Shown: one piece after another, positions 16,674 through 43,489 of the stretch | How the letters are laid out: every line of letters starts with the position of its first letter | How positions within the stretch are numbered: position 1 is the first letter of the stretch | Notes under the pieces: generated by a model | What the model saw: only the letters and a program-made list of their open reading frames with translations | Told to the model about the DNA's origin: nothing | Databases searched by the model: none | Translations under genes and position numbers: made by a program | Source of the DNA: a virus | Strand: one strand, 5' to 3' | DNA length: 43,489 bases | Virus record (IMG/VR): IMGVR_UViG_3300045988_050672 | Coordinates: 1-43,489 of that record

Positions 16674-16749
16674 TGGAGGGCTGTACAGGCTTCGATCCTG
16701 TGACCTGCGGATTAACAGTCCGTTGCTCTACCAGCTGAGCTAACAACCC
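16674..16749 (-). tRNA. tRNA-Asn (anticodon GUU), 76 nt with encoded CCA
   Basis: GGGTTGT-TA-GCTC-AGCTGGTA-GAGC-A-ACGGA-CTGTTAA-TCCGC-AGGTC-ACAGG-ATCGAAG-CCTGT-ACAGCCC-T-CCA. Full cloverleaf, 7-bp acceptor stem with one G-U pair. Confidence 0.9.
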
Positions 16750-29815: not shown

Positions 29816-30114
29816 TTCAATTCCTCCAAAGTAATCTGCCCATCAATGGGCGTATTGTCGGCCTCTTTCCGCTTCCGTTCCGGGACGACTTCTCTCACAA
29901 GGGGGTTGCGGCTTATTGCCCGATTGAATGCCCCACAAGCCATCCATCGTCCCGCCCAGTCCGTCGCTTCACTATGGGTAATCCCGTATACTTTGCATTT
30001 GCAAAGCACTTTATCGTGATACTTGCCCTTTATGAAGTTGCTACACTCCCGGCACGTATGCCCATCCAAAACGCCGAAAAACCGGTGCATTAGAGCAAGT
30101 TTACGTAAAGCCAT
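29812..30114 (-). CDS. Small Cys-rich protein, 100 aa
   Basis: MALRKLALMHRFFGVLDGHTCRECSNFIKG...CKCKVYG. ATG at 30114 with GGAGGAA. Confidence 0.5.
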   Translation of the reverse strand: MALRKLALMHRFFGVLDGHTCRECSNFIKGKYHDKVLCKCKVYGITHSEATDWAGRWMACGAFNRAISRNPLVREVVPERKRKEADNTPIDGQITLEELK

Positions 30115-30695
30115 TATAGTTCCTCCACATAGCACCAACTCTGGGGCGCACGATTCAAACGGCGTTCTTCGCTTGTCAGGCAACCAGCGTATTCACCGGT
30201 ATTTTCCCAAAGCTGGCATTTATCGCAATCCTGAGTACCGCAACATTTCCGGAACTGGGGCAGTTCCTTCGGCGTATCGTATATTTTCAGGTCGGAGATA
30301 TGCCAGCCGTACATTGCCTCCCTTCCGAACGCATAATACCGAAATTCTTTCTCTGTTAGACATGCAGATTTCAAATCCTCGTCGTCAATCTCCCACCAAC
30401 TATCACCGCAGTCGTAATCCATTCCGATTTCCGGGTGCGGGCAGTAATCGTAGTTGTACGTTGCTATGTTGTCACATGCGAACTCACCGACAACTATTTT
30501 CCCACCGCTCACATTGCATACCATCCCGCCATTAACTTTAACTTTGTAACTCAGGTTTCCGGCAGTGCAATAAATGTAAACCTTGAAAGGCGCTTCCAGT
30601 TTCGGACGGGTCTTTCTGACTTCCAGCGTCTTTTCCCCGCTCAGGATTTTCTCCACCCACTCCGGGCGGATGCTGATAAGTACCGATTTAGCCAT
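30114..30695 (-). CDS. ASCH domain protein with Cys-rich C-terminal extension, 193 aa
   Basis: MAKSVLISIRPEWVEKILSGEKTLEVRKTRP is the ASCH N-terminal signature. Confidence 0.7.
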   Translation of the reverse strand: MAKSVLISIRPEWVEKILSGEKTLEVRKTRPKLEAPFKVYIYCTAGNLSYKVKVNGGMVCNVSGGKIVVGEFACDNIATYNYDYCPHPEIGMDYDCGDSWWEIDDEDLKSACLTEKEFRYYAFGREAMYGWHISDLKIYDTPKELPQFRKCCGTQDCDKCQLWENTGEYAGCLTSEERRLNRAPQSWCYVEEL

Positions 30696-30939
30696 TGTCA
30701 GCCCTCCGGTTCCACATATCGGCGGCCTTTTTACGATCGTCTTTGGCAAACGCAATTTTCCCATTCGATTTCAAGTCCGCCGTTACGATGAAATCTCTCA
30801 TAGGCAGTTCAATCATGCAGTTAGTACACTTGATGCCAAATTGCCATCCATGCGTTGTGCAACGTTCGTAGTTGCTGTTGATTATATACTCTGCCTTACC
30901 CCCGCAAAACGGGCATGGCTTCAATTCGATTCCGTCCAT
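30688..30939 (-). CDS. Lar-family restriction-alleviation-like protein, 83 aa
   Basis: LKPCPFCGGKAE ... C.NC ... AADMWNRRA. Zinc ribbon plus WNRR tail. Confidence 0.6.
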   Translation of the reverse strand: MDGIELKPCPFCGGKAEYIINSNYERCTTHGWQFGIKCTNCMIELPMRDFIVTADLKSNGKIAFAKDDRKKAADMWNRRADNG

Positions 30940-31153: not shown

Positions 31154-32686
31154 TTATCCAAAATGCTTTCTCGTCACGGCCATGGGGAACTCCTCGATCT
31201 CGCTCGCCCAGAGGCAGCTTCCTTTCCCGTTCAGCTGCTCCCAAATCAGCGGGAAACCACCGATTCCGTCAAAAAGGCTTGCCATGGTTGCATCCCGTTC
31301 GTACTGGGCGCAAATCCGTTTCAGTACCCATTTCCAGGGCGGGAGGGCAATGGAGTTTCCCAGAGCCTTGTAGCGGCTGCTGTCGGAGCTTTTCTTGTGG
31401 GTCTTGCCCTTGCTGTCTACCCATTCCCCGATGTCCGTCCATCCGTCCGGGAAGCCCTGTAGCCGTTCGCATTCCAGCGGGGTCATGCGGCGCACTTTTC
31501 CGCTTTGGACTGGGTAGGTTTCGCTGTCCTCTCGAAAATCCAGGTTGGCTTTCGCTTTCAGCGTGTGGGCAACATCTTGGCAGAATACCGCTTGCGCATC
31601 GTGCATTGTATTAAGGGTTTGCGCCTTTTCAAATGCCGGGGTAGCCGCTTCGTTTACTTGGCCATTTCCGATTCCATACGCCACCAGCGGTACTTGGTTC
31701 CCACCCGTCCCCATTCTGGCCTGCAAGGATGGAGAAGTGCCACCGCAATCCCGGATTACATCACAGGCGTGGGACATGTCCAGTATTGCAGGCTTATTCC
31801 CGCCGCATTCCGCGTTCAGAGTCGGCGCTCGCTCCTCGCAATATCCGATACTCCTTGCTTTTTCGCTGTTCCCCAGCTTAAACCCAGCGCACACCGCCGG
31901 TCGGTCGATGGTATTCAGGGTGTAGCACACATCCTCCTTCCATCCTTTTCCGTTGCATCTTGCGGTGTCTGCCCGGTCGATGCCGTTTCCCTGCAAGCAG
32001 AACACCGTCTGGTCGTTCTTGCAGCCCAAAGTCCCAGAGACTTCCGTCTGTACTAAGGCTCCCTTTCCGCCTCCGTCACAGCCCCCCCGGATTCTGACTG
32101 CGAAAGAAGTGCCGCTTTCAGCGCCTCCGGCAAGTCCTTTCCCCGCCGTGCCGCCCGGTTCAGAATGCCCCGGCACGCCTTTGCGGACAAATAGTATTTC
32201 TGGTGCGGATTGTCCTCCAAAATCTGCGACAAGCGCGATTCTACGCCGTGTCTGGGGGACTCCCCAAAACTTCGCATCGAGAACTCTCCAAGCAACGCTC
32301 CATCTGTCGCCCATAAGGCATCCGCTGGTTGGCCATCCCTTTTCAGGAACAGGAACAGGGGGCGCTTCCGGCTCGATGACCCTGACCGCTTCTTCGAGGA
32401 CTGCGGCGAAGTCTTTTCCGTGGTTGCTGCTGAATGCTCCGGGGACGTTCTCCCAGACCATGTATCTGGGGCGAATAAACTCACCTGACCGTCCATTTGC
32501 TCTGTCATGCTCTCTCATCTCCCTTATCACTCGAATCTGCTCCATGTAAAGTCCCGACCGTTTCCCGGCAAGCCCGGCTCTTTTTCCGGCAATGCTCAGG
32601 TCTTGGCAGGGGCTACCTCCGATCACGCAATCAACGATTGGAGCAGCTGCACCGTTGATTTTGGTAATATCGCCTAGGTGGTTCAT
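31154..32686 (-). CDS. DNA (cytosine-5) methyltransferase with permuted motif order (III-X, then I-II), 510 aa
   Basis: N-terminus GDITKI (III), GGSPCQDLS (IV), WENVPG (VI), GVPQTRRRI (VIII), RRMTPLECERLQGFP (IX), YKALGNSIALP (X). C-terminus SLFDGIGGFP (I), WASEIEEF (II). Confidence 0.85.
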   Translation of the reverse strand: MNHLGDITKINGAAAPIVDCVIGGSPCQDLSIAGKRAGLAGKRSGLYMEQIRVIREMREHDRANGRSGEFIRPRYMVWENVPGAFSSNHGKDFAAVLEEAVRVIEPEAPPVPVPEKGWPTSGCLMGDRWSVAWRVLDAKFWGVPQTRRRIALVADFGGQSAPEILFVRKGVPGHSEPGGTAGKGLAGGAESGTSFAVRIRGGCDGGGKGALVQTEVSGTLGCKNDQTVFCLQGNGIDRADTARCNGKGWKEDVCYTLNTIDRPAVCAGFKLGNSEKARSIGYCEERAPTLNAECGGNKPAILDMSHACDVIRDCGGTSPSLQARMGTGGNQVPLVAYGIGNGQVNEAATPAFEKAQTLNTMHDAQAVFCQDVAHTLKAKANLDFREDSETYPVQSGKVRRMTPLECERLQGFPDGWTDIGEWVDSKGKTHKKSSDSSRYKALGNSIALPPWKWVLKRICAQYERDATMASLFDGIGGFPLIWEQLNGKGSCLWASEIEEFPMAVTRKHFG

Positions 32687-33060
32687 TTCTCGCTTTCCTC
32701 CACCGGGGAGCGCAGCCAGTTCTCAAGTGCCAACGGGCCAGGCACCTCGTTTTCCGCACAAAACTTTTCAGCTGGACACATAGTGCAACTTAAACAATCG
32801 CAAATAGCATATGCCAAATCCTTATCCGTCATTGCCCGGATTTTATCACTGTTTGTTTTCGGCTTCCCTTTTCGCTGAGATTCAAGCTTCCACTTTGCTT
32901 CCAGCGCATCCTGAAAGCAATTGGCCGCATCGTGGAGGCCGGCGGCCCATACCTGGTGCATCATTTCCATTTCCCATGCCCTTGGGTTTTTGCAGCACCC
33001 ATTTTCTCCATGCTTGTGGTTTACTGGGTTTGGCGTAAGCTGTTCTACAACGTTGCTCAT
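32683..33060 (-). CDS. Hypothetical Cys-containing protein, 125 aa
   Basis: ATG at 33060. ATGA overlap with the methyltransferase start. Confidence 0.55.
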   Translation of the reverse strand: MSNVVEQLTPNPVNHKHGENGCCKNPRAWEMEMMHQVWAAGLHDAANCFQDALEAKWKLESQRKGKPKTNSDKIRAMTDKDLAYAICDCLSCTMCPAEKFCAENEVPGPLALENWLRSPVEESEK

Positions 33061-33084: not shown

Positions 33085-33399
33085 TTATTCCCCCGAGGAA
33101 CTTTCCCCCACCGGGGCGGGGTGCAATTCCGCTTCACCGGCTTGAAACAGCCGTACATTTTCGCCTTGCTCATGCTCAAAAACAACCCCCTCTCTCACCA
33201 AATCCGGGTGTTCATACCGAAAAAATTGGCGTTGTTTTTTGTGGTTTTTCCATAGTTTCATGATGTTTTTGTTCCAGTTATCGATGAAATACATTTCCCA
33301 TGCCTTGCAGCCGTCCCCGTTGGTGGGGCAATCGTCCCGCGTGCAGTTCCTGCAAAAGGGGCTTCCCGAATCGCTGCACTGGCCGGGTTTTTCTCTCAT
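33085..33399 (-). CDS. Hypothetical protein with Cys-rich N-terminus, 104 aa
   Basis: CSDSGSPFCRNCTRDDCPTNGDGC. ATGA overlap with the upstream gene. Confidence 0.55.
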   Translation of the reverse strand: MREKPGQCSDSGSPFCRNCTRDDCPTNGDGCKAWEMYFIDNWNKNIMKLWKNHKKQRQFFRYEHPDLVREGVVFEHEQGENVRLFQAGEAELHPAPVGESSSGE

Positions 33400-34301
33400 A
33401 ACGCATCCCTTCTTTCATCTGCGCCCGCCGCCAGAACCTGCCGTATGGCTTCCAGCTCAGCGTCCCCCAGCTCGCCGGACGCGCCCTTTGGAATATCAGG
33501 CTTTCCATAGCGCCTAACCGGTGGTGCTGACCCAGCGCGGCCCCTGTCCTGCTCTTTGGCAAGCCAGCCGTTGATAAACCGTTGTACCCCGCCCTTGGTT
33601 TTCCGCTTGGAGGGGTTGGCGTCACACCACCCGGCCATTTTCCGAAGCTCTGCCAGGATATCAACGGCGGGGTAGAGTTCTGCCCATTTGTCCACGTCAG
33701 CCTGAAAAACAGGGTAAAGGGATTTATCATTCAGCATGATCTGGCACACCGGTGGCGTGGAGGCGGTGTCCGGCTCCGCGCCTATACTCTCCTTTACTCT
33801 ACTTTTCTCTACTCTACTCTCCTCTACTCTACTCTCCTCTACTCTACTATGTCTTTGGATGTCAGCATTTTTTGAGAAAATGTTGACATTTCTGCTTGAA
33901 ATGTTTACATTGGGGCAAATTTTGGCGCACTCGACCAGAAGGATGTTGTAATCGACTTCAAGACTTTTACGGCGGCTGACTGCCTCGAAGTACCGCTTCT
34001 GAATTCCCCGTGAAGTCAGAACGTGATACTTGTCATATATCTCTTTGTCGAACATCCCTCGTCTGATAGAAGCCTCTATTATTTCGGAAACGACGCTCCC
34101 ACCCAGCCCGCATCTTCGGGCGAACAAAAGCGCAACCTCCTCTGTCCATTCAATGTAATAACCCTCTTTGCCGTATATCTCTTGCAGCAAGTGAACGATT
34201 ACACCAAATCCTGTCAAGCCATATTCTGCTTCTATCAGTTCAAATTTCTTGTCCAAGCAAACATCAAGCGGAAAGAAATCAAGTCCGCTTTTGATTGCCA
34301 T
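33396..34301 (-). CDS. Replication organiser (DUF4373 / Lin1244-type N-terminal domain), 301 aa
   Basis: MAIKSGLDFFPLDVCLDKKFELIEAEYGLTGFGVIVHLLQEIY is the DUF4373 signature. Central SRVEESRVEESRVEKSRV repeat. Confidence 0.7.
   Translation of the reverse strand: MAIKSGLDFFPLDVCLDKKFELIEAEYGLTGFGVIVHLLQEIYGKEGYYIEWTEEVALLFARRCGLGGSVVSEIIEASIRRGMFDKEIYDKYHVLTSRGIQKRYFEAVSRRKSLEVDYNILLVECAKICPNVNISSRNVNIFSKNADIQRHSRVEESRVEESRVEKSRVKESIGAEPDTASTPPVCQIMLNDKSLYPVFQADVDKWAELYPAVDILAELRKMAGWCDANPSKRKTKGGVQRFINGWLAKEQDRGRAGSAPPVRRYGKPDIPKGASGELGDAELEAIRQVLAAGADERRDAL
33807..33851. repeat. Three tandem 15-bp repeats (CTCTACTCTACTCTC) inside the replication gene; candidate origin iterons
   Basis: Two perfect units at 33807..33836 plus a third 12/15 unit. 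More degenerate CTCTAC copies lie upstream from 33786. Confidence 0.8.
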
Positions 34302-40890: not shown

Positions 40891-41520
40891 ATGGAAAAAC
40901 GGAAAATAATACAACAAATATCGACAATTTGTGATAATCTGCCCACAAAGATGAAATGGGCAAAGGAGGAACAGCACAAAACCAATCAGCAGATTATCGA
41001 CAGCACAGGGCTGAGTGAATCCATGGTTAAAAAGTTCTTCTCCGGCCACCTGGCGGGTCCAAGTATCTATGACGTGACCGCCATTGCCATTGACCTTGGT
41101 CTGTCCCTGGATGAGCTGATGGAGCTGTCCCCGCCGAAGCAAGACCAGAGTGTGGAAATCGAACGGCTGAAAACCGAAATTTCACACAAGGAAGAACTTA
41201 TCTCGGAAAAAGATAACGCCATCTCCCGGTTGGAAGAGCGCAGCCACATGATGGATAAAGAAATATCCGCCGTCCGGTATAACTGGAAGCATGTGACTTA
41301 TGGAGCCGCAGGGCTTGCGGTTCTGTTCGGCATCTTCCTTATGGTATATGTCTTTCTGGATATGCAAAACCCGAATCTTGGCCTGTTCCAGTCCGGCCAC
41401 GCCTCGCCGATCGTTTATGTCGCGGCCTTTTTCATTATCGGAACATGCCTGTATATCGTCCGAACTGTGATAAAGCGAAACGCAAAAAGGAGTAAACACG
41501 ATGCAAACAATACCAATTGA
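40891..41520 (+). CDS. Membrane-anchored XRE-type HTH protein (HTH, coiled coil, 2 TM), 209 aa
   Basis: TNQQIIDSTGLSESMVKKFFSG HTH. Coiled coil EIERLKTEISHKEELISEKDNAISRLEE. Hydrophobic helices GAAGLAVLFGIFLMVYVFL and IVYVAAFFIIGTCLYIV. Confidence 0.65.
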   Translation: MEKRKIIQQISTICDNLPTKMKWAKEEQHKTNQQIIDSTGLSESMVKKFFSGHLAGPSIYDVTAIAIDLGLSLDELMELSPPKQDQSVEIERLKTEISHKEELISEKDNAISRLEERSHMMDKEISAVRYNWKHVTYGAAGLAVLFGIFLMVYVFLDMQNPNLGLFQSGHASPIVYVAAFFIIGTCLYIVRTVIKRNAKRSKHDANNTN

Positions 41521-43162
41521 TCTATCGGCTCTTACGCCGGAGGAAAGACAGCAGTTTGCGGATAATCCCTCCGTTCTTTCATCGGACTGCGAGGCGGTCT
41601 GCTGCCTGTATATGCGCTACAGCTCCGACCGGCAGACAGAGCAGTCCATCGAAGGGCAGCTCCGGGAGCTGATAGCCTATTGCAAGCACCACAGCTATCG
41701 GGTTGCCGCCATTTATGTTGACCGGGCGATTTCCGCCCACGCAAGCATGGACAAGCGGCCAGCGTTCCAGCAGATGCTTGCTGACAGCGCCAGATCGTCA
41801 TGGAAAACCGTTTTGGTTTACAAACTGGACAGATTTGCCCGGAACAGGGAAGACAGCGCCATTGCCCGCATGCGGCTCCGTAAGAACGGCTGCAACGTGG
41901 AATCCGCGAAAGAGGGCATTTCCAAGAACCCCGAGGGTGTGATTCTGGAAGCCCTGCTGGAAGGTATGGCGGAATATTATTCTCTAGAGCTGTCCCAAAA
42001 AATAACCAGGGGAATGCGGGAATCTGCCATTAAGGGAAATTGTTTGGGCGGTCAAATCCCACTGGGATATAAAATTGAAAATAAAAAGTACGTCATTGAC
42101 CCCCTGACAGCCCCATTGGTGAAGGAAGCGTTTTCCCGATACGGTGACGGGGAAACAGCCGCCTCGATCTGCGCAGACTTCAACGCCAGGGGTTACAGGA
42201 CAGCAAGCGGCGCAGAATTCAACAAGAGCAGTTTCAAAAATATTTTCCGGAATGAGAAATATATAGGCGTATATAAGTACAAGGAAATGCGGCGGGAGGG
42301 CATCATCCCGCGAATTATTGCCGACGATGCGTGGATTGCCGTTCAATCCCGCTTGAAGGTTAACGAAGCTGCCCCTGCCCGTGGAAAAGCAAAAGTGGCG
42401 TATCTTCTTGCCGGAAAGATTTTCTGCGGTCACTGCGGCGCTCCAATGACAGGCGAGTGCGGGCGCGGAAAATCCGGGAAAATGTACAATTATTACTCCT
42501 GCGCGACCCGCAAGCATCATAACAGCTGTGAAAAAAAGCCAGTCCCGAAGGACTGGCTGGAAGATGTGGTAGCTCAGGACGCCCTTGACGTACTGACAGA
42601 CGAAATTATCGAATTTGTGGCAGAAGTAGCCGCCCAGCAGTCAGAGGAAGACATTCAGAAGAATACACAGATTCCGGTCATACGAAAAAAGATTTCTGAA
42701 ATTGAAAATAAAATCCGCAATCTGACGAAAGCGCTTGAATGTGCTTCCGTTGCGCCGGACGCTATTGTGGAAAGGCTTGCCGAATTGGAAGCCCAGAAAA
42801 AGGGGCTGTCTACACAACTATCCGATGAAGAACGCGGCGTGATTCCGCTCACAAAGGAGTCTGTCGTGGTTTATCTGAAAGCGGTAAGAGAAAAGGCGGT
42901 TCCGCTGGAAACCCAGAAAGCCATGCTTATTGAAATGCTTGTAAATTCCGTCACCGTTTACGATGATGAGCCGGGATTCCTGAAACTCGTGTACGCCTAC
43001 CGCCTGACGCAAATCCCCACGAGGACATATCGTGTGCCAATTCCCGCAAAAGTACCGTGTTCGGATTTTAGGACGCAACCTGCTCCATTGGACGCAAATC
43101 CGAACACAATTACCGTTGTGGGAATGGTTTTCATCCAAACCAGAAGACACGCCCTGCCTTGA
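41501..43162 (+). CDS. int: Large serine recombinase (integrase), 553 aa
   Basis: Resolvase catalytic region YMRYSSDRQ...VYKLDRFARN. Recombinase domain. Zinc ribbon CGHCGAPM...YYSC. C-terminal coiled coil. Confidence 0.9.
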   Translation: MQTIPIDLSALTPEERQQFADNPSVLSSDCEAVCCLYMRYSSDRQTEQSIEGQLRELIAYCKHHSYRVAAIYVDRAISAHASMDKRPAFQQMLADSARSSWKTVLVYKLDRFARNREDSAIARMRLRKNGCNVESAKEGISKNPEGVILEALLEGMAEYYSLELSQKITRGMRESAIKGNCLGGQIPLGYKIENKKYVIDPLTAPLVKEAFSRYGDGETAASICADFNARGYRTASGAEFNKSSFKNIFRNEKYIGVYKYKEMRREGIIPRIIADDAWIAVQSRLKVNEAAPARGKAKVAYLLAGKIFCGHCGAPMTGECGRGKSGKMYNYYSCATRKHHNSCEKKPVPKDWLEDVVAQDALDVLTDEIIEFVAEVAAQQSEEDIQKNTQIPVIRKKISEIENKIRNLTKALECASVAPDAIVERLAELEAQKKGLSTQLSDEERGVIPLTKESVVVYLKAVREKAVPLETQKAMLIEMLVNSVTVYDDEPGFLKLVYAYRLTQIPTRTYRVPIPAKVPCSDFRTQPAPLDANPNTITVVGMVFIQTRRHALP

Positions 43163-43190: not shown

Positions 43191-43489
43191 TACATACCCT
43201 GCACCACTCCGACGTTCTCCGCCCGCTCAATATCTCGCTTGTGCAGGTACTCATAGACGGCCATCATGGCCGCAGGCGGTTCGCCCTTCTGCTTGCGGTA
43301 TTCCTCAATGTGGGAAACAACGGCCTTGTGCAGGGCGTTCATGTGGTTCATTTCCTCCCCGCTCAGCCTGTAAAACAGGTCTGCCAGTTCCGGGTCGTCG
43401 TGCTTGTATTCCACGGCCAGCTCTGCGTAGGTGTGCGCGTCCTCCAGCTCATCCTCAATGTGCTCCATCAGCAGTTTGATTTCTTTCAT
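43181..43489 (-). CDS. Small all-helical protein with EExxH motif (ferritin/rubrerythrin-like guess), 102 aa, last gene of the cargo operon
   Basis: LEDAHTYAELA...LSGEEMNHMNALHKAV. ATG at 43489 (equivalent to position 77) with AGGAGGG upstream at 85..91. Confidence 0.6.
   Translation of the reverse strand: MKEIKLLMEHIEDELEDAHTYAELAVEYKHDDPELADLFYRLSGEEMNHMNALHKAVVSHIEEYRKQKGEPPAAMMAVYEYLHKRDIERAENVGVVQGMYKK
43413..43489. repeat. Terminal direct repeat identical to 1..77
   Basis: See feature 1..77. Confidence 0.95.

Follow-up and report, generated by a model that had tools for sequence, protein, structure and literature searches.

The question raised by this locus is whether a DNA cytosine-5 methyltransferase (C5-MTase) gene in which motifs I and II stand behind motif X encodes a working enzyme of natural origin. 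DNA methyltransferases that have undergone circular permutation serve as a textbook example of how protein topology evolves. In the window, by which the whole 43,489-nt stretch of DNA analysed is meant, positions 31154–32686 probably encode a functional orphan C5-MTase, a natural circular permutant; the phage is temperate and siphovirus-like, and its hosts are gut Clostridia of Oscillospirales type. The permuted order had been claimed for these positions by the sequence-only reading, and it was confirmed: the ORF lies exactly there, on the minus strand (a detail absent from that reading), and every motif string quoted is present in its translation.

The locus contains a single ORF of 510 aa plus a stop codon, the ATG of which overlaps the stop of the upstream ORF (32683–33060) as ATGA. 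All features of the protein are given here by position on the minus strand. Motif III (HLGDI, aa 3–7; 32666–32680) forms the new N-terminus, MNHLGDI, and is followed by motif IV (GGSPCQDLS, aa 23–31; 32594–32620) with the catalytic Cys27, motif VI (WENVPG, aa 78–83; 32438–32455) with Glu79, and motif VIII (PQTRRRI, aa 144–150; 32237–32257) with Q145, R147, and R149. The variable region (aa 170–392; 31511–32179) leads to motif IX (VRRMTPLECERLQGFP, aa 398–413; 31448–31495) and motif X (YKALGNSIALP, aa 439–449; 31340–31372), next to which a motif X helix is predicted at aa 448–459. An X-to-I linker (AQYERDAT, aa 460–467; 31286–31309) then joins motif I (MASLFDGIGG, aa 468–477; 31256–31285) and motif II (WASEIEEF, aa 493–500; 31187–31210) with Glu496, and the C-terminus reads ..WASEIEEFPMAVTRKHFG through motif II and closes with KHFG before the stop. 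The order is III-IV-VI-VIII-TRD-IX-X-linker-I-II, that is, III–X and then I–II, instead of the canonical linear order of I through X. The catalytic motifs IV (P-C-Q), VI (E-N-V), and VIII (Q-x-R-x-R) are present, as are the AdoMet-binding motifs LFDGIGG (aa 471–477), SEIE (E496), GDI (D6), and GNS (G443/N444).

Profile searches place the protein in the C5-MTase family. The PF00145 profile, which the sequence-only reading had proposed as a check for a two-segment permuted match, matched in four stretches (122.2 bits, cut-off 22; E=4e-35), and TIGR00675 likewise in four stretches (123.6 bits, cut-off 100.65; E=1.3e-35). A phmmer comparison with M.HhaI aligned residues 5–58 to HhaI 59–112 (motifs III–IV), 130–154 to 146–170 (VIII), 372–428 to 247–290 (TRD and IX), and 469–510 to 15–54 (I–II). 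The last of these is weak alone (3.5 bits), and the same stretch aligned strongly to the N-termini of close canonical relatives. AlphaFold with 52 close homologues gave a pLDDT of 39.5, and a 120-sequence alignment gave a confident core, with pLDDT >90 at aa 1–30, 50–170, and 400–510, which include both ends of the core; the TRD region was poorly modelled (pLDDT <50). In the C-terminus, strands are predicted at aa 468–471 and 491–495 and helices at aa 477–486 and 499–509, one strand and one helix each for motifs I and II. Foldseek against PDB and BFVD, by sequential alignment, supported the MTase fold for aa 1–160, and the best PDB match was M.HhaI (E=1.6e-9), with only about 160 sequentially aligned columns. 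Because Foldseek aligns sequentially, the placement of I–II rests on pLDDT and secondary structure, from which we infer that the C-terminal segment docks into the AdoMet pocket. The polypeptide begins between motifs II and III and runs through III–VIII, a multi-module target-recognition region, IX, X, the linker, and I–II; the C-terminal strand-helix-strand-helix would pack by the motif X helix and rebuild the canonical pocket. A flipped cytosine would then be methylated at C5 in the usual way by Cys27 (PCQ), Glu79 (ENV), and Arg147/149.

Engineered enzymes provide the closest parallel. The Type B class, as defined for engineered enzymes (PMC5944983), starts between motifs II and III and links motif X to motif I, and the window protein shows both features. 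When all viable permutants were built, in ten classes, the Type B forms of M.MpeI and M.SssI showed the highest activity; permutants of M.HaeIII that were evolved in the laboratory and start at II/III were active too, as cited there (PMC5944983). The same 2018 paper has described Type B as absent among natural C5-MTases, has called this absence surprising, and has speculated that Type B might weaken AdoMet binding, an affinity cost that would explain it. No report of a natural Type B permutant was found in the literature, with REBASE outside the search. By its motif order in sequence, the window family is a natural form of the Type B topology, previously engineered only. The enzymes cp62M.MpeI, cp58M.SssI, and the M.HaeIII permutants share its topology and a short linker from X to I. 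However, these are laboratory products of unit length that recognise one target each (CG or GGCC) and whose linkers were designed, whereas the window enzyme belongs to a large natural phage and prophage family. It has a conserved natural linker (..YERDATM..), its variable region is long and multi-module, and an ORF in the +1 frame is nested in its gene.

The sequence-only reading had also held that the permuted m5C enzymes known so far are broken at other points, which agrees with the literature: a single natural breakpoint was known before, in the variable region (PMC5944983). These Type H permutants, which correspond to class F of bioRxiv 10.1101/2023.12.13.571470, have a presumed origin by duplication and trimming, as is proposed for the window enzyme. 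M.BssHII, M.Alw26I, M2.Eco31I, M.Esp3I, and M2.BsaI likewise occur naturally as permuted versions of the PF00145 fold in which X is fused to I. Their break lies in the variable region, so that IX–X precede I–VIII, and most belong to Type IIS R-M systems. In contrast, the window enzyme is a phage orphan broken between II and III, and its IX–X follow VIII and the TRD. The plant DRM2 and ntDRM enzymes, which were among the PDB sequence matches, are also C5-MTases with a rearranged motif order, in which VI–X precede I–V, but they are eukaryotic and dimeric and use a breakpoint other than that of the window enzyme. A large natural Type B family under purifying selection fills a gap among the known permutants and permits a direct test of the proposed AdoMet-affinity cost.

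A survey of homologues, proposed with the claim of permutation, found the order conserved across a large family. None of the 120 nearest 90%-identity clusters places motifs I–II before IV, and full-length permutants make up 106 of the 150 best 50%-identity representatives. The permuted order was found in 79 of 80 IMG/VR viral loci and in 31 of the 80 best GTDB genome loci, the latter being prophage loci in Clostridia. In a neighbour-joining tree of the re-ordered core (midpoint rooted, without support values), the 93 permuted genes grouped in a single clade that none of the 46 canonical genes entered, and one change suffices under Fitch parsimony. Fossils of the event are seen at the junctions. 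Joined head to tail, the protein reads ...AVTRKHFG + MNHLGDITKI, and canonical relatives have at the same place an unbroken ...VTKIRFPEMLHVGDITKL. The new N-terminal Met1 is the counterpart of a Met that canonical relatives conserve internally (RFPEM.H.GDITK), and Met468 resembles a fossil of the canonical N-terminus (M.TMGSLFDGIGG). In addition, complete genes with a second topology (TRD-IX-X-I-...-VIII) carry a homologous X-to-I linker; these rare relatives within the lineage (P0184 and P0128) have their N-terminus in the variable region and a Type H-like order. The tandem duplication and trimming that had been suggested is supported by the fossils, the tree, and the second topology, and we infer a single origin of the permuted gene, in which a canonical gene was duplicated in tandem and fused in frame and the product was then trimmed. 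The Met inside HFP.M.HLGD would have been turned into the new start, and the old start Met would have stayed inside the linker. With canonical, two permuted, and split forms in one lineage, the pathway of duplication, fusion, and trimming should be reconstructable.

The variable region consists of a low-complexity linker of about 35 aa followed by an array of putative, cassette-like TRD modules, each carrying a T-L or S-L dipeptide, with five TL sites. Relatives vary by cassette-like insertions and deletions (443–775 aa in length), and BLASTP self-comparison detected no internal repeats in this region. The Bacillus phage enzymes M.SPRI, M.Phi3TI, and M.Rho11sI are orphan multispecific C5-MTases with tandem modules carrying T-L/V between VIII and IX. 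The window enzyme resembles them in its apparent T-L modules between VIII and IX and in the variable presence of such modules among relatives, which suggests multispecificity, although these three enzymes keep the canonical I–X order. The surrounding genes include a replication initiator, two Lar-like genes, ASCH, a serine integrase, a terminase, and a portal gene. The MTase gene lies in the early/replication module and adjoins the two Lar-like restriction-alleviation genes. From this position, these neighbours, and the cassette-like TRD array, it is proposed that the enzyme protects phage DNA against host restriction, possibly at several sequences.

A nested reading frame complicates this picture. 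ORF-B (151 aa; 32053–32508, minus strand) lies in the +1 frame relative to the MTase and overlaps its aa 60–211, and a purine-rich, SD-like stretch, GGGAGATGAGAGAGC, stands upstream of its ATG on the same strand. ATG codons of ORF-B lie at 32506–32508 and 32494–32496. Its conserved core, KYYLSAKACRGILNRAARRGKDLPEALKAALL (32104–32199, minus strand), is under purifying selection in the +1 frame, and the MTase frame across the core is merely kept stop-free. A tract of seven G residues on the coding strand (32082–32088) marks the place where ORF-B and the MTase frame can join, and relatives with eight G residues have a two-ORF alpha/beta architecture. The sequence-only reading had missed both the nested ORF and the poly-G tract, and with them the enzyme may not be a simple single chain. 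It could instead consist of two polypeptides in the manner of M.EcoHK31I, either a main chain with the ORF-B product or, after slippage from G7 to G8, alpha (III–VIII) with beta (ORF-B-TRD-IX-X-I-II), and we give this alternative nearly an even chance. The +1 frame is open over motif VIII in all of the 141 intact genes, with a median open length of 148 codons compared with 29 in the +2 frame, and in synonymous shuffles it stayed open in a median of 2% of trials. Across the 31 codons of the core, frame B shows 71% amino-acid identity compared with 38% for the MTase frame, and variation is concentrated at frame-B third positions. Phages of Streptococcus, Vibrio, Caulobacter, and Mycobacterium also carry the ORF within canonical MTase genes, as does a P1-like dmt. 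In Anaerotignum sp. MB30-C6 the alpha and beta ORFs overlap and ORF-B makes up the beta N-terminus, Chakrabartyella piscis carries the core in frame between VIII and the TRDs, and among close relatives the architecture toggles with G7 and G8. Against two polypeptides, the start codon of ORF-B is not strictly conserved, its core has no Pfam, NCBIfam, or PDB relative, and the MTase frame holds all ten motifs without it. The G7/G8 differences, moreover, may be fixed evolutionary states, or rarely homopolymer errors, instead of phase variation.

There is precedent for such an arrangement, since the beta chain of M.EcoHK31I is encoded in another frame inside the alpha gene (PMC2836561). The window gene likewise contains a second, conserved and selected reading frame, but the EcoHK31I beta chain supplies motif IX, which the window gene has in its main frame; the module encoded by ORF-B (KYYLS..GILRRA..RGK.LP) is another one and uncharacterised. 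The window gene also has relatives that are split into alpha and beta, comparable to M.EcoHK31I and M.AquI. In M.AquI, alpha carries I–VIII and beta IX–X. Profile searches of Pfam, NCBIfam, and PDB with the ORF-B core gave nothing above chance, and in PHROGs it matched only weakly to phrog_16143 ('DNA methyltransferase'). The core may resemble the 'L.DILE..KYYLS' element that follows motif VIII in Dcm-like enzymes, a likeness not borne out by the PDB search. No report of the nested +1 ORF was found in the literature, REBASE again being outside the search. ORF-B probably supplies a small conserved module in trans. A broader reading is put forward tentatively, at somewhat less than even probability, in which the window gene would belong to a dual-coding phage C5-MTase clade; this clade, spanning Vibrio, Caulobacter, Streptococcus, and Mycobacterium phages and a P1-like dmt, would carry a +1 ORF of about 130–220 codons over motifs VI–VIII and the following linker. 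Its module (KYYLS.KAC.GIL.RA.RRGK.LP..L..AL) would be part of the working enzyme in trans, as the beta N-terminus, or in cis, depending on frame relations that the G7 or G8 tract could flip. The gut-Clostridia lineage would have been permuted at least twice, to Type B and to a Type H-like order, and a subclade may need programmed +1 recoding at UGU-UAG-A after the catalytic Cys. If expressed, the +1 ORF would be a deeply conserved overlapping gene in a well-studied enzyme family, a P1-like dmt included.

The subclade in question is sizeable and carries an invariant 4-nt insertion that puts TAG directly after the catalytic Cys codon (TGT-TAG-A). Together with frameshifts at a poly-G in the homologues of the two cultured phages found (Faecalibacterium phages FP_Toutatis and Lelie), it indicates that some members of the family depart from a plain, uninterrupted single chain. 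Recoding of TAG to Gln was rejected for this variant, as TAG is an ordinary stop in flanking genes and a sense reading of it leaves the frame unrestored. Several gene calls of ORF-B were also set aside as evidence of real frameshifts: L003 is a scaffold N-gap artefact, L004 and L005 look like decaying pseudogenes, and L008 is an N-terminally truncated gene fused to ASCH. The 210-aa proteins like P0301, which join III–IV to the ORF-B frame, were judged to be frameshift variants and not designed fusions.

A functional permutant also has to be weighed against an inactive rearranged remnant, either a pseudogene or a catalytically dead DNA-binding protein, an alternative raised by the sequence-only reading that now appears very improbable. 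Decay does occur among relatives: L004 and L005 have degraded motifs III–IV and a frameshift, L008 is without motifs III–IV, and the FP_Toutatis and Lelie homologues are broken at poly-G. The window gene, however, is intact and keeps every conserved catalytic and cofactor residue. Across 120 sequences, Cys27 and Glu79 never vary and R147 and R149 hardly do; the invariant residues also include R399, G443/N444, F472/G474, and E496, and the linker residues Y462, R464, and T467 are invariant in close relatives. The relocated 42-codon I–II segment has a dN/dS of about 0.13–0.15, the family has diverged to 54% core identity with the order retained, and high activity is shown by engineered enzymes that share this topology (PMC5944983). 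An assembly artefact, by which a canonical I–X gene was mis-joined or a circular contig was cut within the gene, is regarded as already refuted: the window was assembled as a circle (77 identical nt stand at its two ends) and tandem repeats can be collapsed in metagenomic assemblies, but the gene lies about 31 kb away from the contig junction, its start codon is coupled to the upstream gene through the ATGA overlap, the identical 510-aa product occurs with unchanged flanks on at least 23 contigs that differ in sample and assembler, the motif order is common to hundreds of diverged homologues, some of them prophage genes in the genomes of isolates such as Acutalibacter sp. 1XD8-33 and Intestinibacillus massiliensis (Marseille-P3216T), a permuted homologue is also carried by the isolate Gemmiger sp. 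An87, and no second MTase fragment or duplicated DNA was found within the window.

No characterised or named relative of the enzyme was found among its homologues, and source names are generic only, such as 'DNA (cytosine-5)-methyltransferase 1', with the permutation unmentioned. For research on methylomes and on phages and their hosts, such naming of enzymes that abound in gut phages and prophages is of consequence. In some database records, genes of the family are split into two calls or labelled only as hypothetical proteins.

The window gene (minus strand, 31154..32686) is a single ORF of 510 aa that fills this interval, and its start codon shares bases with the stop codon of the ORF upstream (ATGA at 32683-32686). 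Motif III is located at aa 3-7, IV at aa 23-31, VI at aa 78-83 and VIII at aa 144-150, and a long variable region is followed by motifs IX (aa 398-413) and X (aa 439-449). The ORF then runs through a linker, AQYERDAT (aa 460-467), into motif I (aa 468-477) and motif II (aa 493-500) before the stop. Every motif string quoted in the sequence-only reading was found in this ORF. The order that it had proposed, III-X followed by I-II, was confirmed by the motif positions and by phmmer against M.HhaI, where query residues 469-510 fall on HhaI 15-54 and residues 5-58 on HhaI 59-112, and the mapping is therefore permuted. The Pfam model PF00145 (E=4e-35) and TIGR00675 (E=1.3e-35) also match the ORF, each in four stretches. 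Judged from its sequence, the gene is a member of the C5 DNA methyltransferase (MTase) superfamily that departs from it only in its motif order.

Ten classes of active permutants have been built from M.MpeI and M.SssI, the most active being class B, in which the N-terminus lies between motifs II and III (PMC5944983). The window MTase has the topology of these engineered Type B permutants. The same study found 27 natural permutants in REBASE, and all 27 are broken in the variable region, in agreement with the earlier statement that known natural m5C permutants use other breakpoints. A 2025 topology classification places m5C enzymes only in classes C (canonical) and F (M2.Eco31I type). No report of a natural Type B C5-MTase was found in the literature, REBASE itself being outside this search.

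The permuted order is not an assembly artefact: at least 23 contigs in ENA and Logan, obtained from different samples and with different assemblers, encode the exact 510-aa product next to the same neighbours, and 15 of these contigs are 20-50 kb long. When the gene was compared with the whole window by tblastn and blastn, no second MTase fragment was found. The first 77 nt (1-77) recur as the last 77 nt (43413-43489). This overlap marks a circular assembly, and the window accordingly represents a complete genome with a unit of 43,412 bp (~43.4 kb), in which the MTase gene lies ~31 kb from the circular junction. A large family shares the order. The 120 nearest clusters at 90% identity (58-100% identity, 379-775 aa) include none in which motifs I-II precede IV, and nearly all of them start with M.HLGDITKI and end with ..WASEIEEFP.AVT..F. 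When 1.84 billion 50%-identity representatives were searched exhaustively with HMMER, 3,777 matched below 1e-30, and 106 among the best 150 of these were full-length permutants by a strict motif test. In IMG/VR the order was permuted in 79 among the best 80 loci, which is not an unbiased frequency, as the ranking favours query-collinear sequences. The best 80 loci in GTDB (one genome per species) included 31 permuted and 45 canonical genes, and the hosts were Clostridia (Oscillospiraceae, Acutalibacter, Ruminococcaceae, Dysosmobacter, Gemmiger, Intestinibacillus and Lachnospiraceae). The permuted proteins carry only generic names in the databases. Two cultured phages with a homologue were found, the Faecalibacterium phages FP_Toutatis and Lelie; the homologue is 44% identical and has the same order but is frameshifted.

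An inactive rearranged remnant had been named as the alternative to a working enzyme. Decay does seem to occur inside the permuted family: one relative, recovered from two samples (L004 3001-4667 and L005 467-2132), has degraded III-IV motifs (HLGNITKI, AGERAGFSGERSVLFLDQ) and a frameshift before motif VI. For the family at large, C27, E79, R399, G443/N444, F472/G474 and E496 are among the residues invariant in an alignment of 120 sequences, and dN/dS of the relocated I-II segment is ~0.13-0.15 (42 codons, 110 distinct sequences, 1,203 informative pairs). An AlphaFold2 model made with a diverse alignment has pLDDT >90 at aa 1-30, 50-170 and 400-510 and <50 in the variable region. At the C-terminus it places strand 468-471, helix 477-486, strand 491-495 and helix 499-509, the beta1-alphaA-beta2-alphaB pattern expected for motifs I-II. 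The top PDB matches by Foldseek were M.HhaI, M.HaeIII and M.MpeI (E down to 1.6e-9), with only ~160 columns covered because Foldseek aligns sequentially. Conservation and model argue that the function of the permuted enzyme is kept. Motifs I-II are predicted to dock into the AdoMet pocket, and the enzymatic activity and target specificity of the window MTase are likewise predictions.

In a neighbor-joining tree of the conserved core, re-ordered as I-II + III-VIII + IX-X, the 93 permuted genes formed one clade with no canonical member inside, as against 46 canonical genes, and Fitch parsimony gave one change. Core identity averages 70% inside the permuted clade (minimum 54%) and 61% between permuted and canonical genes (maximum 70.5%). 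The closest canonical relatives begin with M.TMGSLFDGIGG, and their II-III junction reads ..VTKIRFPEMLHVGDITK... In the permuted proteins this internal Met is the first residue (M.HLGDITK) and the C-terminus reads ..HFG or ..RFPE; their X-to-I linker retains ..ATM(A/G)SLFDGIGG, apparently a fossil of the former N-terminus. A third order, TRD-IX-X-linker-I-II-III-IV-VI-VIII (TRD, target-recognition region), was found in six representative clusters, two of which (P0184 and P0128) were checked as genes, while P0242, P0244, P0248 and P0255 are known as protein sequences only. P0184 (L174 1707-2876) and P0128 (L175 1637-3259, also L176) each stand alone as a complete gene that has an RBS and a start codon and is flanked by unrelated genes; in both, the X-to-I linker is homologous and motifs II and III are joined without a break. 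The three topologies, found in one lineage and sharing an X-to-I fusion, fit a model of duplication, fusion and trimming. Together with the junction fossils, they support the tandem duplication and trimming suggested earlier, and we infer such an origin.

The window is a temperate siphovirus-like genome encoding large terminase, portal, major head and tape-measure proteins, a large serine integrase (41501-43162, plus strand) and a tRNA-Asn(GTT) (16674-16749, minus strand). The MTase is located in the early/replication module, with a replication initiator (33396-34301) upstream. Directly downstream, on the minus strand, come two Lar-like restriction-alleviation genes (PF14354; 30921-31244 and 30688-30939) and an ASCH-domain gene (30114-30764); no restriction endonuclease lies close to the MTase. 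With the MTase, these three genes look like an anti-restriction cluster. In one homologous locus (L008) the MTase and ASCH ORFs are fused. Five TL-type modules lie in the variable region (window 31511-32179, MTase aa 170-392), and relatives of 443-775 aa vary by the presence or absence of whole cassettes. The region resembles a series of short target-recognition cassettes, and the array with its indels suggests a multispecific enzyme with shuffling TRDs, reminiscent of the TL-module arrays of multispecific Bacillus phage MTases. The putative role is that of an anti-restriction orphan MTase, possibly multispecific.

A nested ORF of 151 aa, ORF-B (32053-32508, minus strand), overlaps MTase aa 60-211 in the +1 frame. 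In 141/141 intact relatives this frame is open over motif VIII (median 148 codons, minimum 115); the +2 frame is open for a median of 29 codons, and the median share of synonymous shuffles that leave the +1 span open is 2%. The N-terminal half of ORF-B arises as a by-product of MTase motifs (TWSGRTSPEHS, for example, is the +1 reading of YMVWENVPGAFSS), and its C-terminal core, KYYLS.KAC.GIL.RA.RRGK.LP..L..AL, overlaps a non-conserved MTase linker. When 134 distinct sequences of this 31-codon core are translated, frame B gives an amino-acid identity of 71%, compared with 38% for the MTase frame and 37% for the third frame. Most of the variation falls on third positions of frame B (0.21, 0.15 and 0.38 at positions 1, 2 and 3), and stops occur in 4/134 sequences in the MTase frame versus 131/134 in the third. 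The core shows coding-type selection in frame B, with the MTase frame there only kept open. Searches of Pfam, NCBIfam and PDB found no relatives of the core. Canonical MTase genes annotated in Streptococcus phage Javan105 (39% GC), Caulobacter phage DMCA, Vibrio phages and Mycobacterium phage Dallas contain the same +1 ORF, as does dmt of the P1-like phage RCS47. Nested ORFs of this kind lie at L006 1486-1881, L007 1345-1869, L090 1612-2073, L092 2237-2728 and L093 1513-1992. In the decayed L004/L005 relative, a 210-aa gene call joins III-IV to the ORF-B frame.

The enzyme is split in Anaerotignum sp. MB30-C6, a complete genome (L165 1495-2157 and 1811-3460): alpha carries I-VIII, and an overlapping beta begins as ORF-B and runs on into TRDs, IX and X. 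Chakrabartyella piscis (L169) has the core placed in frame, after VIII and before the TRDs. Canonical-order relatives with either arrangement are L165, L166 and L169. The classifiable loci comprise 105 single-chain genes with ORF-B in +1, one single-chain gene with the core in frame, seven alpha/beta pairs and ten others. A G7 tract (32082-32088) marks where ORF-B and the MTase frame meet. With G7, as in the window and in L049, L012 and L026, a single-chain MTase and a short ORF-B result. With G8, as in the close relatives L111 (83% identical), L110 and L120, a truncated alpha (III-VIII) and a beta (ORF-B-TRD-IX-X-I-II) result, because frame B runs on into ..GGGCDGGGKGALVQ... The tract could serve in phase variation or as an evolutionary toggle, and any role of ORF-B and the tract is putative. 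The closest precedent is M.EcoHK31I, whose beta chain also lies in another frame inside the alpha gene; unlike ORF-B, it supplies motif IX.

Frame-altered relatives also exist. The invariant 24-nt string GGTGGTTCACCTTGTTAGACAGGA occurs at ~position 2575 in 15/80 viral loci (L012, L016-L019, L021, L023, L033, L039, L041, L048, L054, L064, L065 and L086) and in database proteins beginning MVHLVRQDLS.. (P0071, P0074 and P0081-P0094). It contains a 4-nt insertion that puts a TAG directly after the catalytic Cys codon (CCT TGT TAG A CAG) and shifts the remainder of the gene into the +1 frame. The 27 codons before it are conserved as protein, with a strong RBS and a GTG start, and the downstream ORF is conserved in the +1 frame. 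A +1 recoding, a split enzyme or a maintained 'off' allele are possible. Global TAG recoding in this subclade was ruled out, TAG being a normal stop elsewhere in the loci. A frame change at a G run between VI and VIII was found in several loci and in FP_Toutatis (L001 2501-3912) and Lelie (L002 2501-3917), the break falling into different frames in the two phages. The gene is annotated as two 'DNA methyltransferase' CDS in one of these phages and as a hypothetical protein in the other.
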